From positions 1-63,168 of IMG/VR virus record IMGVR_UViG_2526164633_000022: a DNA stretch of 63,168 nucleotides, one strand, 5' to 3'. Shown one piece after another: positions 42,899 to 49,077 of this stretch. Each line of letters opens with the position of its first letter. Position 1 is the first letter of the stretch. Position numbers and translations under genes: made by a program. The notes beneath the pieces are model-generated. The model was not told where the DNA came from, searched no databases, and saw only the letters and a list, made by a program, of their open reading frames with translations. This DNA is from a virus. Its lineage: Duplodnaviria; Heunggongvirae; Uroviricota; Caudoviricetes.

Positions 42899-43422
42899 CG
42901 GTCAATGGGGCCATCGACTGGCTTAACCGCGCTTCTTATTTTTTCACCCTTGATCCATCCCCAGACAATATGCGGCGCGTTGGTCGTGGCCGCCGTCGCC
43001 GTGGTGTTTGTTATTGCATGGCACTACCCGATGTTAAAGAACGTGAAGTCAGAGATGGCGTTCTGTGCTTCCGTCGTGTGGCTGAACGCGGCACAGAGCC
43101 AAAAAATACGAATTCTCCCGAGTGGTGGGCGTGGCGCTGGTCCGCACATTTCGGCCTTTGCGAAGATGAGAATGAAATTGCCAGCGGCAATAGTGCATAT
43201 GGTGCTCTGAACCTGGCTTTCCATATCGGATTCAAACATGTAGCCCTGGTGGGCGTTGACGCTACGCAAGAACCACGCGTTCACTCCGGCGGCACGCCAA
43301 AAAATCTAAGTCACCTGCCTTTGTTATTCCAGTCTGCGCGTGAACAGATTGACGTTGTTTCATGCGGGAAAATGGGAGGTATTCCGCAGATGACTCTTAA
43401 AGAATGGCTGAAGAATACATGA
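42796..43422 (+). CDS. GxGPS-motif protein, paralogue 2
   Basis: N-terminal VIIVGSGPS...IIAVNG; shared downstream NSG.A..LA and LVG.D motifs. Confidence 0.55.
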
Positions 43423-44096
43423 TGGCACCCACAATTTATCACCGTATCGACGGTACCAAATACAGGAATGTCTGGGTTGTTGGTGATCTGCATGGTTGCT
43501 ACACCAGACTGATGTCCGAACTCCATCGTGTGGATTTTGACCCGGCGCAGGATTTACTGATATCGGTCGGCGACCTTATCGATCGCGGTACTGAAAATGT
43601 CGAATGTCTGGAACTATTGCAGATGCCCTGGTTCAGGGCAGTGATGGGGAACCATGAGCGGTTGATGCTCGATGCGTTAAGTCCTGATGGCAACGTGAAT
43701 AACTGGCTAATGAATGGCGGACAATGGTTCTTCATGCTGGACACTGATCAGGAAATATTAGCTAGGGCGCTGGTGGAGCTGGTAAAGCGTCTGCCCTATA
43801 TCATTGAGTTGAACACCGGGCAAGAAACTATCGTTATAGCCCATGCCGACTATCCGGATAATGAATACCAATTCGGTAAGGAGGTGCCGCTTTTCAACGT
43901 TGTCTGGGCGCGCGAGCGTATCAGTGATTCGATGGATGATATTGGAGGCGAAATTTCGGGCGCAGATCGTTTTATCTTTGGTCACACTCCGGTGAAAAGC
44001 CCGAAGACATTCTGGAATCAGCATTATATCGACACTGGTGCCGTATTTTGCGGAAACCTGACATTGATGAAAGTGAAAGGTGATGGTGCAGCATGA
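43419..44096 (+). CDS. ppp: Ser/Thr protein phosphatase (lambda PPase-like)
   Basis: Start ATG overlapping upstream stop (ATGA); motifs GDLHG, GDLIDRG, GNHE. Confidence 0.8.
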
Positions 44097-44794
44097 AGAT
44101 TGCTTTAGTTTTTCGCTCTGGTGGTGACTATAACGCTTCCGATGTGCAGTGGCTGGTTAATCAACTGCCAAAAGGCTATGAAATTATTTGCCTGACAGAC
44201 CTGAAGCGTTTACATGTACCTGGCGTCAAAGTTGTCCCATTGATCAACCAGTGGCAAAAGTGCCGTGGCTGGTGGGCGAAAATCGAGTTGTTCCGACCGG
44301 ATATAACCGATGATCTGTTCTATCTGGATTTGGACACGGTTATTGCCGGTGATATACGCCCAATCCTAGAGCATCCACCAACCAGCTTCACCATGCTTAG
44401 GGATTTTTACCATCCACAATATCGTGGCAGCGGTGCCCTGTGGATACCAAATAGTGTTAAAGCGCATATCTGGAGTTCATTCTGGCAAGATCCGGAAGGT
44501 TGGATTTCTCGTTGTGTCACTACTGAGTGCTGGGGTGACCAGGGGTTCTTACGAAAGGTTATGGGCGATGATACACCAGCATTTCAGGATCTGTATCCAG
44601 GATGGTTTGTAAGTTACAAGGCCGATGTTGTGGAACCTGGTTCAAAATATGCGAGCGCGCGTTACTCCAGGGGGAATGGGGCATTACCAAAAGACTGCCG
44701 AATAATCTTTTTCCACGGCAAACCGCGACCTCGCGAAGTGTCAGAGGATTGGCTTCCCCTTATCAGCTCATTTTTTGAGCGAGAATCAGAATAA
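44093..44794 (+). CDS. Hypothetical protein
   Basis: 233 aa; ATGA overlap with ppp stop. Confidence 0.5.
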
Positions 44795-44795
44795 T

Positions 44796-44861
44796 ATTGC
44801 TCTAATAATTCCATATTTTTAAAACGTGATGTACACTCATCACGTTTTTTATTAGAGCAAT
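44796..44861. promoter_or_regulatory. Inverted C1 operator pair flanking a palindromic hairpin
   Basis: ATTGCTCTAATAATTCC (44796-44812), hairpin ACGTGATG-TACACT-CATCACGT + T-run, reverse operator TTTTTTATTAGAGCAAT (44845-44861). Confidence 0.65.
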
Positions 44862-44875
44862 CTACAAGGTGCACT

Positions 44876-45094
44876 ATGTGGCCATTCCGACGGAAATATC
44901 ACTACTGGCTGATCGCCTTTGTTACGCCGACCGGCGGTATCAGGCATGTCATCACCAGGTATCGCAACAAGAGACTCACCTTAGCCAGAATTTTACAGGC
45001 TGCCATAGGTGAGGGACTGGATACAAATTGCGTAGTCCTTCCTCCTTCATACTTAGGAAAAATGACCGAAGCACAAGCTAATACGGAACTTTGA
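44876..45094 (+). CDS. Small ORF downstream of operator pair
   Basis: 72-aa ORF; no recognisable features. Confidence 0.3.
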   Translation: MWPFRRKYHYWLIAFVTPTGGIRHVITRYRNKRLTLARILQAAIGEGLDTNCVVLPPSYLGKMTEAQANTEL

Positions 45095-45095
45095 A

Positions 45096-46358
45096 ATGAT
45101 CACTTCAGCACAAAACCAATCAATCGAAAATGTATCTATCCCTGACGTCCTGAATGCCGGTATCCCGGCCATTATCCAGAACATCCGGGCCGCGCAACGC
45201 CGCGTTAGTTGTGATGACCTCACAGCACGTTTTTTTGATAATGCGGTTCAGTCAGCGGAGATGCTTCACGCACAGCTTATTGATGTTTATAACGCAGAAG
45301 CTGATAGCCATAACTCCCTGGTAGATGCAGCTGAAAATATGCAGTTGGATCTCGGTCTGAAGGGTAAAGAAATTGAAGAGCTTCAGCTGCAAATTGAACA
45401 TTTGAAACGCCAGCAACAGGACGCGATCGACGATGCGACGCATGACGCCAACCAGCGTGCTGATAATGCCGAACGTATAAGCATTGAGCTGGAAACAAAA
45501 CTCAATGAAATGACCGCGATGGTTGAACTGCGGAACTCACAGATTTCAACGCTAAAATCTCAATATAAAGAGATCATGAAACTTGATCCTTTTAACCTTG
45601 AGAAACGCTATAACAAAGCTAAAAGCGAGCGACAGGAACTGCGTAAGCAGGTCGCCGACCTTAACCAACAGCTCAAAAAAACTATTAAAGATGCAAGCGA
45701 AGCGCGCGTGGCATTTGCTAATAAAAAAGCAGAGGTTACCGCGCTGGTTAATGAGAATGCCAAATTTGCGACGCTCAAGAAGGAAATGTATGGCATTACT
45801 GAGCGCCGTTTCCCTGCAAGCAAACTTCATCCGACGTTAGGGCAAATCTCCTTCTTCCCGCGCCTCCTGGCTTATGGGATCTCATCGCCTAAAGAGTTCA
45901 ATAACGAGCGTCCTTATATCGTTTCTAAGCTGGACTTTGCTTATCAGTTCTGCTGCGACATGGGCTATGCCATTGATATCCGGATCAACGAATGGTTGAT
46001 GCCAAACTTCCAGCCGTTGGCCATTTTCCGCGAGTTCCAGCCGGAAGGTTGGGTAGAGTTCTTCCATGAATTGATCTGTAAAGAGATGGAAAGCCGCCGC
46101 CCGGAACTAGTCCGTCGAGTTGAGTGGGCGCAAGAGGTTATGTTGGCAGAGGCAGAGCTGCCGTTCGAACCGGAATTTATTGATGATCTGGCAGCTAAAG
46201 GGCTGCATACCCTGTTTGATGTGGTTACCCGCCGTCATGAGCAGTTGGTTGTCGAATTGGGTTTAGAGGAAACAGCGGCAAGAAGACTTCTCGATGTTTG
46301 CTATGCACGTAGCGATGCATGGGAAAAAGAGAACGGCGGCACTATTTACGTCCGCTGA
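45096..46358 (+). CDS. Coiled-coil protein
   Basis: 420 aa; N-terminal heptad-rich region (…EIEELQLQIEHLKRQQQDAIDD…), globular C-terminal half. Confidence 0.55.
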   Translation: MITSAQNQSIENVSIPDVLNAGIPAIIQNIRAAQRRVSCDDLTARFFDNAVQSAEMLHAQLIDVYNAEADSHNSLVDAAENMQLDLGLKGKEIEELQLQIEHLKRQQQDAIDDATHDANQRADNAERISIELETKLNEMTAMVELRNSQISTLKSQYKEIMKLDPFNLEKRYNKAKSERQELRKQVADLNQQLKKTIKDASEARVAFANKKAEVTALVNENAKFATLKKEMYGITERRFPASKLHPTLGQISFFPRLLAYGISSPKEFNNERPYIVSKLDFAYQFCCDMGYAIDIRINEWLMPNFQPLAIFREFQPEGWVEFFHELICKEMESRRPELVRRVEWAQEVMLAEAELPFEPEFIDDLAAKGLHTLFDVVTRRHEQLVVELGLEETAARRLLDVCYARSDAWEKENGGTIYVR

Positions 46359-46430
46359 TAGTTACAGTGTCACTTTTAATGCTGGTGGAGTGCGCCCACC
46401 AGCATTTTTTTCGTCCAATGAGGAGGGCAT

Positions 46431-46937
46431 TTGAGTATTTTCAATAAACACGCACGCCAGGAACGTCCGTATATCGTCATAGTCGATATTGATGGAACAA
46501 TATCAGAGGCAACTGAAGACAGACTGCATTTGCTTCCGCCACCAGGTAAAGGTGCATTAACAAAGGACTGGAACGAGTTTAATCTCGCCTGTGACACCGA
46601 TACTCCCATCACTCCGGTTATTGATATGGTGCGCCAGTTATTTAACGTTTACACGGTCTGGTTTGTAACCGGGCGCTGTGAGATCGCAAGGGATAAAACA
46701 CGAGCCTGGCTGCGGAAGTACGTAACAAACGGGGCTGAGCCTTTGCTATCTATGCGTCCTGCCACCGATGACAGAAATGACGGTCCAGCAAAGATTGATC
46801 TCCTGAAGAAAATTGGTCTAAGTAAAATTGCGTTCGCGCTGGAAGATAAGATTGAAGTGGCGCGTGTGTTCAGGAGTCACGGCGTACTTACATTCATGGT
46901 CAGGGAGTATGAAAATGCGCTTCTTCATCAACAATAA
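46431..46937 (+). CDS. HAD-superfamily phosphatase-like protein
   Basis: 168 aa; motif IVIVDIDGTIS. Confidence 0.55.
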   Translation: MSIFNKHARQERPYIVIVDIDGTISEATEDRLHLLPPPGKGALTKDWNEFNLACDTDTPITPVIDMVRQLFNVYTVWFVTGRCEIARDKTRAWLRKYVTNGAEPLLSMRPATDDRNDGPAKIDLLKKIGLSKIAFALEDKIEVARVFRSHGVLTFMVREYENALLHQQ

Positions 46938-46953
46938 TTGCTCTAATAAATCT
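46937..46953 (+). promoter_or_regulatory. C1 operator overlapping stop of HAD-like gene
   Basis: ATTGCTCTAATAAATCT. Confidence 0.65.
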
Positions 46954-47131
46954 TGATTTTTAAGGCAGGGGAAGTGAAAATAAAAACATGCCGCAAGGCG
47001 CGGCATGTATCCAATCAATCACAGGAGCTGAAAATATGAACACGGCATTCAAAATCATTATGGCCGCGATCTATTTCTGGCTGTTCTCTATCACTTTTGG
47101 CGGCATCGTCGCACATGGGTAAGGGGGATGC

Positions 47132-47860
47132 ATGAAAGGCGAAGTGAAAGAGCGCGGCATGATTTTCAACGATGAGATGGTCCGGGCCATCCTCGAAGGA
47201 AGGAAAACGCAGACGCGGCGGATAATGAAAAATCAGCCTGCGGAAGTCGGTCCAGAAGCACCAGTGATGGTTAGAAAAATTGGTGCAGGTTTTCAGTGGT
47301 ACGGGGCTGATGGTGTAAGCAGTGTTTTCAATTGCCCATTTGGTATCGTCGGCGATCGAATTTGGGTTCGTGAAACATGGGCGATATTAGGCAATGAGGA
47401 TGGTTGCAGTGTGGACTGGAACGACAACCTTTGTCGTGGCGATGAGAAGAACGCAGCAAGGATTTATCGGGCCAGTTGCGAGCAAAAACCTGGTGATTAC
47501 GGCTTATGGTCGATACCCGATGATGCCGACTGGAAACCTCACACTGTGAATGAAAAGTTTGATGGTGGGTGGCGTCCATCAATTCACATGCCGCGATGGG
47601 CATCACGCATTCTGTTGGAAATTACCAACGTGCGCGTTGAACGGTTGAACGATATCAGCGAATGCGATGCAAGGGCTGAGGGCGTTCCGCCTGCTGGAAG
47701 TTTGCTTCCTGATCACCCGGGAACATTCCTTACTCCCAAGGGGGATTTCGCAATGGCCAAGGTTGCGTTCCAGCGCCTGTGGGAATCCATCTATGGTGAA
47801 GAAAGCTGGAACGCTAATCCCTGGGTGTGGGTAATCGAGTTTAAGCGCATTCAGGAATAA
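47132..47860 (+). CDS. Conserved phage hypothetical protein
   Basis: 242 aa; N-terminal MIFNDEMVRAILEGRKTQTRR...GDRIWVRETW. Confidence 0.55.
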   Translation: MKGEVKERGMIFNDEMVRAILEGRKTQTRRIMKNQPAEVGPEAPVMVRKIGAGFQWYGADGVSSVFNCPFGIVGDRIWVRETWAILGNEDGCSVDWNDNLCRGDEKNAARIYRASCEQKPGDYGLWSIPDDADWKPHTVNEKFDGGWRPSIHMPRWASRILLEITNVRVERLNDISECDARAEGVPPAGSLLPDHPGTFLTPKGDFAMAKVAFQRLWESIYGEESWNANPWVWVIEFKRIQE

Positions 47861-47943
47861 ACCGTGAGTATGCATCAAATCGTCAGTTTTTCAGGTGGAC
47901 GAACATCGGCCTGTCTCGTTCATCTGTTCGAAGAGGTAGTGGC

Positions 47944-48147
47944 ATGACAATCGTAAAAACCCATACCGGCACCGTGATCACCAAAGACGGGCCGCAGGTA
48001 AAAAAACTGCACCAAACAGAGCGGATGTGGGTCGTCGGCAAAAATGAGTTTTACCACAAAGATACCGGACGCCGCCACTTTGCAGAAAATACGCGCCGTC
48101 GACTGCTGTTAGACACCATCAAGCCTATCGAGGTGAAGCATGTTTAA
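47944..48147 (+). CDS. Small hypothetical protein
   Basis: 67-aa ORF. Confidence 0.35.
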   Translation: MTIVKTHTGTVITKDGPQVKKLHQTERMWVVGKNEFYHKDTGRRHFAENTRRRLLLDTIKPIEVKHV

Positions 48148-48379
48148 ACAGAACGAAAAAGCTATCGCTCAAATTGCTGATTATATCCCGCGTGCGTGCC
48201 GGGGTATGCAGTTGCAGCAAGCCAAAGCGCGCCTGGAGAAAAAAATTGCGCTCTATATTGATGACGGCTGTGATGCTGCCGTTCTTAACGCGGCGTTCGC
48301 ACCAGCTCTTAACAGTCATACTCGGGAGTCTTTTTTTTCGTGCATCGAAGCGCAACTCCGCAAAGGAGGCAGCCAGTGA
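48140..48379 (+). CDS. Small hypothetical protein
   Basis: 79 aa; ends ...RKGGSQ, overlaps next GTG start. Confidence 0.35.
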   Translation: MFKQNEKAIAQIADYIPRACRGMQLQQAKARLEKKIALYIDDGCDAAVLNAAFAPALNSHTRESFFSCIEAQLRKGGSQ

Positions 48380-49077
48380 GCGAAATTAATTACCGGGCAC
48401 TGCGTGAGATAGCAAAACAGGCAACACAGGGCGAATGGGTCGCATTTATTTCGCCGGGTACTGGTACGTATGCGGTGCATACGCCCGGTGATAAACGATG
48501 TGAAGACGTTATCAAATGGACCGGCTTTGATGGACTGAAAAACGCAGAGAACAACGCTCGTTATATTGCCGCATTCAACCCAAAGGTTGCACTGGAGCTA
48601 CTTGGTGAAATTAAGCGCCTGGAGGACACAAATATTGATGCTATGTGCCGAATAGCACCGCTTGAGACTAAGCTCGCGGCTCTGGTGGCAGAGAACGCTG
48701 GGCTGAAACACGCAATGGCTGTAACTCTTGATCATGTGTCGGTCACGGATGCAGGGCAGGCCGGAGTTGCTGCAATGATTATCAACGATGCCCTACACCA
48801 CAGCGAAACTCCAGCTACCGATGCTTTTCTGGCTGAAATTCGTGCGGAAGCACGCAACGAGGGGATTAACTATACCGCCAGCCGTCTTGCTGCTGCGTTC
48901 AATCACGGATTTATCAATAAGTCTTTGCGTGAAGTTTTCGACGTTACGCGCATGATTCTGTCAGCGAAAGAAGAGTTGGCTAATGAACCGTACCCGATTG
49001 ATGGCCTGTCCGGTGAATATGCGGAGAAATCCCTTGAAGAATGGGCGGAACAGATTCGCAAAGGAGGCAACCAGTGA
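48376..49077 (+). CDS. Ea22/Ead-like protein, copy 1
   Basis: GTG start after AAAGGAGG; N-terminus VSEINYRALREIAKQATQGEW. Confidence 0.6.
   Translation: MSEINYRALREIAKQATQGEWVAFISPGTGTYAVHTPGDKRCEDVIKWTGFDGLKNAENNARYIAAFNPKVALELLGEIKRLEDTNIDAMCRIAPLETKLAALVAENAGLKHAMAVTLDHVSVTDAGQAGVAAMIINDALHHSETPATDAFLAEIRAEARNEGINYTASRLAAAFNHGFINKSLREVFDVTRMILSAKEELANEPYPIDGLSGEYAEKSLEEWAEQIRKGGNQ

Follow-up and report, generated by a model that had tools for sequence, protein, structure and literature searches.

A P1/P7-like segment encoding two phosphatases and the predicted coiled-coil protein PmgS appears to span parts of three C1-repressed transcription units

Identity of the segment

We analyzed a segment of tailed-phage (Caudoviricetes) DNA, positions 43,419 to 46,953 of the 63,168-nucleotide IMG/VR virus record IMGVR_UViG_2526164633_000022 (the whole of which is called the window below), in which an original prediction made from the sequence had seen an operator-bracketed block of two phosphatases flanking a 420-aa coiled-coil protein. 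It is very likely that the window represents a P1/P7-like phage-plasmid and that the segment is the P1/P7 (Punavirus) arrangement ppp-pmgQ, Op86a/b, pmgR-pmgS, terminator, pap, Op88, comprising parts of three sigma-70 units repressed by C1. Bases 43300-47100 are 98.5-99.0% identical over the full 3.8 kb to P1, P7, SJ46, and 813R1, and megablast returns 19 phage records that span this whole query at 97.6-99.0% identity, including P1, P7, Salmonella phage SJ46, vB_EcoM-813R1, and RCS47. Each of the block proteins differs from its P1 or P7 counterpart at 0-6 residues. A base-by-base comparison shows that the Op86 region is identical to that of both P1 and P7, that Op88 is identical in P1 and differs at one base in P7, and that the hairpin between pmgS and pap has the P1 sequence, with one base changed upstream of it in P7. 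The P1 record AF234172 already labels ppp, pmgQ, OpmgRa and OpmgRb (formerly Op86a/b), PpmgR, pmgR, pmgS, pap, and OpmgT (formerly Op88); in the P7 record (AF503408), pmgR and pmgS carry the names shtA and shtB. Given this near-identity to an annotated P1 segment, the finding is a rediscovery: the block is already known, has long been annotated in P1/P7, and constitutes no new system.

Operators and transcription units

Scanning the whole window with the 17-bp asymmetric C1-operator consensus ATTGCTCTAATAAATTT, with up to three mismatches allowed, gave 13 matches against 0.24 expected, a count that none of 100 shuffled sequences reached. The operator sites of the original prediction (44796-44861 and 46937-46953) are among them and are identical to the P1 sites: Op86a (OpmgRa; 44796..44812, plus strand, three mismatches), Op86b (OpmgRb; 44845..44861, minus strand and thus inverted relative to Op86a, three mismatches), and Op88 (OpmgT; 46937..46953, plus strand, one mismatch), all of which also keep the positions relative to genes that are annotated in P1. 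A repeat finder independently recovers the three as inverted and direct repeats, Op86b within inverted repeat I4 and Op88 through an extended 27-nucleotide similarity to Op86a (repeat D1). The predicted promoter PpmgR has its -35 box at 44797-44802, where Op86a overlaps it, and its -10 box at 44820-44825 (positions from the P1 record); Op88 shares a single base with the pap stop codon, the first of the operator and the last of the codon. A further operator, Op83 (Oppp; 42079..42095, minus strand), was placed by carrying over its position from the P1 record, in which its sequence is identical; it has four mismatches to the consensus and was therefore missed by the three-mismatch scan. Judged by their sequences, the operators are genuine C1 sites, with C1 binding and repression as such resting on the annotation of the P1 and P7 records.

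The open reading frame (ORF) listing, which covered 41500-49000, puts all of the listed block genes on the plus strand: pmgO (42236-42898), pmgP (42796-43422), ppp (43404-44096), pmgQ (44093-44794), pmgR (44876-45094), pmgS (45096-46358), and pap (46431-46937). ATGA start/stop overlaps couple ppp to pmgP on its 5' side and to pmgQ on its 3' side. The pmgS start lies one nucleotide past the pmgR stop, so translation of these two genes is probably coupled, whereas pap, 73 nucleotides beyond pmgS, starts at a TTG codon and has the ribosome-binding site AGGAGG. The stretch thus spans parts of three transcription units, not one: ppp belongs to the upstream Op83 operon pmgN-pmgO-pmgP-ppp-pmgQ, Op86 controls pmgR-pmgS, and Op88 governs the next downstream operon rather than the ppp-pap block. 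Every feature named by the original prediction is present where it was placed, including the mostly helical 420-aa ORF, but the bracket was misread, since ppp lies 5' of Op86 under Op83 and a terminator splits pmgS from pap. The phosphatases do stand on either side of the coiled-coil protein, although not directly, because pmgQ and pmgR, which had been missed, intervene between Ppp and PmgS.

Two terminator-like hairpins, both on the plus strand, mark the boundaries between units. The intrinsic terminator between pmgS and pap (hairpin 46378-46406, feature extending to 46413) consists of an 11-bp stem with six GC pairs, a 7-nucleotide loop, and a following TTTTTTT; it ranked first in the terminator scan of the region, was also folded as RNA, and has no corresponding feature in the P1 record. 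The other (44821..44851) sits amid the Op86 sites and has an 11-bp stem (AAAACGTGATG/CATCACGTTTT), a 6-nucleotide loop, and a T-run. The RNA fold of 44790-44875, which takes in this hairpin and the operator arms, has a free energy of -26.9 kcal/mol (z = -7.4), and none of 200 shuffles was equally stable. The folding model suggests that the Op86 hairpin probably terminates the ppp-pmgQ transcript; a PpmgR transcript would begin within the hairpin loop, lack the 5' arm, and thereby escape termination, so that the same element would end the upstream operon yet let PpmgR-initiated transcripts pass. An Rfam scan of 41000-48500 found no RNA family, the best candidate being GcvB at E = 0.38, well under threshold.

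Control of these operators by C1 is taken from published work. On this account C1, bound to 17-bp operators that overlap promoters, would keep the three sigma-70 units silent in the plasmid prophage, and its inactivation would lead to their transcription. Expression of pap would probably depend on read-through of the pmgS terminator.

The two phosphatases

The lambda-type Ser/Thr phosphatase of the original prediction is Ppp (230 aa), an orthologue of lambda phosphatase (NinI). It aligns without gaps over 219 residues to the lambda enzyme (PDB 1G5B, E = 1.1e-94), contains the GDLHG, GDLIDRG, and GNHE motifs, and scores 59.4 bits against the Pfam Metallophos model (cut-off 21.5). Loss of catalytic residues had been named as the result that would count against this assignment; all nine of the lambda residues compared are kept, with Ppp D28, H30, D57, R61, N83, H84, H147, R170, and H194 corresponding to lambda D20, H22, D49, R53, N75, H76, H139, R162, and H186, which we take to be the catalytic and metal-binding set. 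By sequence, then, Ppp is a lambda-type Ser/Thr phosphatase, and the 64% identity to lambda phosphatase given in the P1 record suggests that it would act in an Mn-dependent manner on phospho-Ser/Thr (and Tyr/His) proteins, as the lambda enzyme does. Its translation may start at 43419 or 43422 instead of 43404; the former is the codon of the internal Met6, overlaps the pmgP stop as ATGA, and may plausibly be the true start.

The second enzyme, Pap (168 aa), was correctly called HAD-type. It matches Pfam HAD_PNKP (PF25109) at 46.5 bits against a cut-off of 27.6 (E = 5.3e-12), with the DxDxT nucleophile motif I present as DIDGT at residues 19-23 and candidates for HAD motifs II-IV, picked by eye, in VWFVTGR, PAKIDLLKK, and ALEDK. 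The best PDB match, and the sole structure-anchored alignment, is to the Pnkp1 phosphatase domain 4XRP (E = 0.0011, residues 56-151). Pap also matches phrog_415 (E = 1.2e-56) and aligns to positions 156-292, the C-terminal phosphatase half, of the 295-position phrog_505 profile. We considered a bifunctional polynucleotide kinase-phosphatase of the T4 Pnkp type and rejected it: the protein is 168 aa long, has no P-loop kinase domain, and aligns with the phosphatase half alone. Because it matches just that half of the kinase PHROG, the "polynucleotide kinase" labels in databases are over-annotation, and sequence comparison identifies Pap as a stand-alone phosphatase of the polynucleotide kinase-phosphatase (PNKP) phosphatase-domain type. 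Such an enzyme would remove 3'-phosphates (possibly 2',3'-cyclic phosphates) from nucleic-acid ends, or phosphates from small phosphomonoesters; neither the ORF listing nor the P1 and P7 records showed an RNA ligase gene in the stretch covered. Phage records with Pap-like genes number 1,080, and Pap is an ordinary phage accessory enzyme.

PmgS and its relatives

The 420-aa protein, for which the original prediction recognized no family, is catalogued as P1 PmgS and matches phrog_1660 over its full length (residues 1-420, E = 4e-195). In a word-indexed search its close relatives were confined to P1-like elements, and a profile search of 1.8 billion representatives extended the family to 120 clusters, mostly of 370-470 aa, whose members source databases name hypothetical, HhH-domain-containing, or alpha-CTD-domain-containing. 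An AlphaFold2 model built from a 47-sequence alignment (mean predicted local distance difference test score, pLDDT, 87) consists of two long helices (15-161 and 168-236) joined at an LDP turn with a nearly invariant proline, a small beta/alpha domain at ~240-350, and a C-terminal helical domain at ~355-412 with a predicted helix-hairpin-helix (HhH) fold resembling the RNA polymerase alpha-CTD. In model comparison this last domain comes closest to the N-terminal domain of RAD51C. The model is thus consistent with an elongated, probably DNA-binding early protein that would be made in step with PmgR (72 aa, 100% identical to the P1 and P7 proteins), for which we found no family beyond phrog_3177.

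Other comparisons of PmgS gave little. Fold searches found no clear structural match for the small middle domain, Foldseek of the model against viral predicted structures returned nothing at E <= 0.001, and the sequence matched solved structures at the level of coiled-coil noise (E >= 0.14). We rejected an SMC, Rad50, or LmuB identity, as the coiled coil alone gave matches, all of them weak (E = 1e-4 to 5e-3) and well short of the cut-offs, and there were no ATPase heads or motifs; in PADLOC, likewise, the only similarity of PmgS was to the LmuB coiled coil. A nuclease function for the middle domain was also rejected, there being no conserved acidic motif.

Among representatives of the family (P0047-P0120), 28 of the 72 that are full-length end in Ala-Ala, against 0.6 expected from composition, and another group ends in ...WT(R/K)EQRGL(N/K). 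The -AA tails resemble C-terminal degrons of ClpXP (ssrA-like); the PmgS of the window ends in ...IYVR and has no such tail.

Genomic context of PmgS-like genes

Distant relatives were placed in context using 61 IMG/VR prophage loci, found with a five-sequence sub-alignment and related to one another. The PmgS-like gene lies on the same strand as the genes before it and closely trails them. In 37 of these loci it directly follows a YqaJ-type exonuclease gene that itself comes after RecT or another annealase; in three it directly follows RecT, which comes after a RecE-like DUF3799 protein; and in 11 it follows a 144-aa gene located after a DnaQ-like exonuclease. Beyond these loci, Aeromonas phage phiARM81mr has a PmgS-like gene between exoVIII-RecT-integrase and a Dam methylase, and Vibrio phage douglas 12A4 has one ahead of a DNA methyltransferase. 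A Raoultella P1-like plasmid carries one behind a VRR-NUC gene, and a further PmgS-like gene, whose product groups with Leclercia sequences, lies behind a cytosine methylase on its contig. No structural genes were found near distant PmgS-like genes in any context examined (the 61 loci and the phage and plasmid cases). The 58-aa gene upstream of the phiARM81mr member shows no similarity to PmgR.

Downstream of Op88 in the window, a 242-aa gene (47132-47860, plus strand) belongs to phrog_874 and is P7 upf86.8-like. Of the 61 loci, 14 (including L013, L016, L017, L025, L044, and L055) have a homologue of it 0.4-4 kb downstream from their PmgS-like gene, which indicates that both families tend to share the early region.

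Three divergent P1-like loci, the only ones returned by the contig scan, allowed closer comparison. Two of them, L004 and L008, in which PmgS is ~52% identical, keep pmgM-pmgO-pmgP-ppp-pmgQ-pmgR-pmgS and carry pap further downstream, ~0.9 kb beyond pmgS in L008. The most divergent, L003 (PmgS 27% identical), keeps pmgM-pmgO-pmgP-pmgQ-pmgR-pmgS and has neither ppp nor pap. The absence of both phosphatases from a locus that keeps pmgR-pmgS argues that they are not partners of PmgS; Ppp and Pap would instead be accessory cargo. At the DNA level, phage D6 has ppp alone in common with the block.

Function of the block

The in-frame deletions of Gonzales et al. (2022) included pmgQ, pmgS, ppp, and pap (PMC9024508). 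In that study 24 of 29 single knockouts, these four among them, showed neither a plaquing nor an anti-restriction defect. The five essential genes included pmgR, whose deletion produced unjoined tails and incomplete heads (PMC9024508). Piya et al. (2023) likewise count ppp, pmgQ, pmgS, and pap among the non-essential genes, on the strength of CRISPR interference (CRISPRi) as well as the deletion study, and used ppp as a non-essential control (PMC10695390). Within the block, pmgR is the only essential gene. The original prediction had named dispensability without a phenotype as evidence against itself; this is largely what has been published, with the exception of pmgR. The laboratory hosts of the deletion and CRISPRi work, however, would not reveal a role in host reprogramming or counter-defence. 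Published P1vir transcriptomes gave no usable timing for the block genes.

We consider it very unlikely that Ppp, Pap, and PmgS are co-regulated as a single module serving to reprogram host signalling or to counteract host defence. The family calls behind this proposal were right and the single module is not supported. All of its genes are C1-repressed early genes rather than Lpa-dependent late ones, their dispensability on laboratory K-12 hosts is typical of accessory or counter-defence genes, and the active-site motifs of both enzymes are intact. Yet the genes fall into separate transcription units with terminator-like hairpins between them, L003 has lost the phosphatases independently of pmgR-pmgS, and the distance from pmgS to pap varies from 73 nucleotides here to ~0.9 kb in L008. 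Moreover, PmgS-like genes are accompanied by a Ppp or Pap homologue in 0 of the 61 distant loci, Ppp, Pap, and PmgS match no PADLOC model apart from the weak coiled-coil similarity, and anti-restriction was unchanged in the deletion mutants (PMC9024508). A literature search on NinI or phosphatase and defence found nothing relevant.

For PmgS itself, the names used by the P1 and P7 records (ShtB in P7) and by PHROGs ("PmgS-like head morphogenesis") imply a role in virion morphogenesis, where it would work with PmgR as a factor for the head, sheath, or scaffold. The apparent translational coupling of pmgS to pmgR, whose deletion blocks head-tail joining, and the frequency of long coiled coils in scaffolding and tape-measure-like proteins favor such a role, but we hold it to be highly improbable. 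Both deletion and CRISPRi knock-down of pmgS leave plating normal, PmgS is absent from the main text of the virion-proteome paper (PMC9024508), and the gene is under a repressor-controlled early promoter, with no late promoter. Distant homologues adjoin RecT, YqaJ, RecE-like, DnaQ-like, VRR-NUC, and DNA methylase genes, never structural genes, and the modeled C-terminal domain has a nucleic-acid-binding HhH fold. The early promoter, the viable deletion, and the DNA-metabolism neighbors together make the "head morphogenesis" label unlikely; it is probably wrong, and the role implied by the name is not what we find.

These same neighbors raise the possibility that PmgR and PmgS work as a pair in DNA metabolism, on phage DNA ends, recombination intermediates, or concatemers, with the pmgR-deletion phenotype reflecting a defect in the packaging substrate rather than in structure. 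A PmgS-like gene directly follows a recombination exonuclease or annealase in 40 of the 61 loci and lies behind the 144-aa gene and DnaQ-like exonuclease in the 11 described above, so that at least four different upstream modules are represented; other family members adjoin Dam/Dcm methylases or a VRR-NUC nuclease, the predicted HhH domain is nearest to the RAD51C N-terminal domain, and the pmgR deletion resembles the terminase (pacA) knockout of the same study (PMC9024508). Against this, the 61 loci are related prophages, and the association may merely reflect a conserved position in the early operon; their context is suggestive and no proof, although several different upstream modules are seen. 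In addition, P1 can dispense with pmgS and lacks a RecT/Exo module, the PmgS middle domain has no conserved acidic catalytic motif, and distant PmgS-like genes are unaccompanied by a pmgR homologue. We regard the DNA-metabolism pair as a tentative and rather unlikely proposal. Similarly doubtful, although we put it forward as a lead, is the broader idea that PmgS and the ~120 clusters, from enterobacterial, Vibrio, Aeromonas, and Plesiomonas prophages and phage-plasmids, form an early coiled-coil HhH DNA-binding family that aids phage recombination or DNA processing (by protecting ends, handling concatemers, or modulating a host nuclease, for example) rather than morphogenesis, many members being short-lived through the C-terminal -AA degron. 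If true, such a family would recast the essential P1 PmgR as a factor in DNA maturation rather than in head-tail joining.

Our overall account, a P1/P7 segment of three C1-repressed units with accessory phosphatases and a probably DNA-binding PmgS, has to be set against several observations that do not favor it. Both terminators and the PpmgR start rest on folding and on the predicted promoters of the P1 record. In the PmgS of the window the HhH hairpin is degenerate (ELGLEE versus KGIGxK) and has no Pfam HhH match of its own, so that DNA binding is not assured. The need for pmgR in completing virions fits the old "morphogenetic" label, at least for that gene.

As the outcome of a scan the locus carries little weight, since it comes from some of the best-annotated phages and its genes have already been deleted without visible effect, and it gives no fresh handle on why P1 and lambda retain an active Ser/Thr phosphatase. 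What is mildly new is the architecture and context of the PmgS family, together with operon and terminator details. The residual value lies in a corrected operon map, which comprises three units and adds two terminator-like hairpins absent from the features of the P1 record; in the evidence that the labels "PmgS-like head morphogenesis" and, for Pap, "polynucleotide kinase" mislead; and in a testable lead that places the PmgS family in phage DNA metabolism.

Neighboring genes and other features

The gene that follows ppp, pmgQ, encodes a putative GT-A/GT8-like glycosyltransferase of 233 aa. It matches phrog_1962 ("glycosyltransferase") at E = 2.5e-128 and has a DxD motif in FYLDLDTVI, the region of which weakly matches the GT8 enzyme of PDB 6MW5 (E = 0.086); there was no Pfam or NCBIfam match. 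The ppp operon (42236-44794, with pmgO, pmgP, ppp, and pmgQ) has the look of a glycosylation cassette. It may serve to modify a glycan in the lytic phase, for which the lipopolysaccharide (LPS) core, the receptor of P1, would be an obvious candidate.

Several further observations concern the neighbors of ppp. PmgO and PmgP have sub-threshold Pfam MptE-like matches, and a PHROG labeled "alpha-2,3-sialyltransferase" matches PmgO strongly and PmgP weakly. In the divergent locus L003, a CTP_transf_3 gene (10588-11352) of the CMP-sugar synthetase family, KdsB-like by eye, lies a few genes downstream. Just upstream of Op83, PmgM (41494-42072, plus strand), annotated as "putative morphogenetic," has a VRR-NUC-like C-terminus (Pfam E = 3e-4, just under the cut-off) and also matches a PHROG labeled "Holliday junction resolvase" (E = 5e-27).

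Just 3' of Op88, at 46958-46975, the window carries four substitutions relative to both P1 and P7 (TTTTTAAAACAGAGAAAG -> TTTTTAAGGCAGGGGAAG), which alter the -10 hexamer annotated for the P1 promoter P2pmgT. A 10-bp GC-rich hairpin at 46986-47008, with a T-run on the minus strand, is like a minus-strand terminator, although the genes nearby include none on that strand; read from the plus strand, it falls within the 5' leader of the transcript that Op88 controls. The interval from Op88 to the next gene also contains a 28-aa hydrophobic ORF (47036-47122, plus strand; MNTAFKIIMAAIYFWLFSITFGGIVAHG), which has an AGGAG ribosome-binding site. P1 and P7 share it with 100% conservation, but neither record annotates it, and L003, L004, and L008 lack it; its product may be a leader peptide or a small peptide of the membrane.

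Comparison with known systems

The closest known system is the P1/P7 segment ppp-pmgQ-Op86a/b-pmgR-pmgS-pap-Op88 itself (AF234172 80760-84309; AF503408), with which the window shares gene order and 98.5-98.9% DNA identity; it differs by a few amino-acid substitutions and the four base changes 3' of Op88 and is otherwise the same in structure. Lambda phosphatase (NinI, 1G5B), whose gene sits in the nin region, aligns gap-free with Ppp and shares all metal-binding and catalytic residues, but the setting differs, ppp being embedded through ATGA overlaps between glycosyltransferase-like genes in a C1-controlled operon. Pap has the HAD signature, the DxDxT motif, and a family-level Pfam match in common with PNKP phosphatase domains of the T4 Pnkp type and with Capnocytophaga Pnkp1 (4XRP); unlike T4 Pnkp it has no kinase domain and could not by itself complete an end-healing and sealing pathway, and stand-alone phosphatases of this kind are common among phages. 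The PmgS C-terminus, finally, may be likened to the (HhH)2/alpha-CTD-like domains of RAD51C and RAD51 (N-terminal domain), the NusA AR repeats, and the RNA polymerase alpha CTD, from which PmgS differs in that the domain is joined to a ~220-residue helical hairpin and a small domain, without ATPase or polymerase parts.

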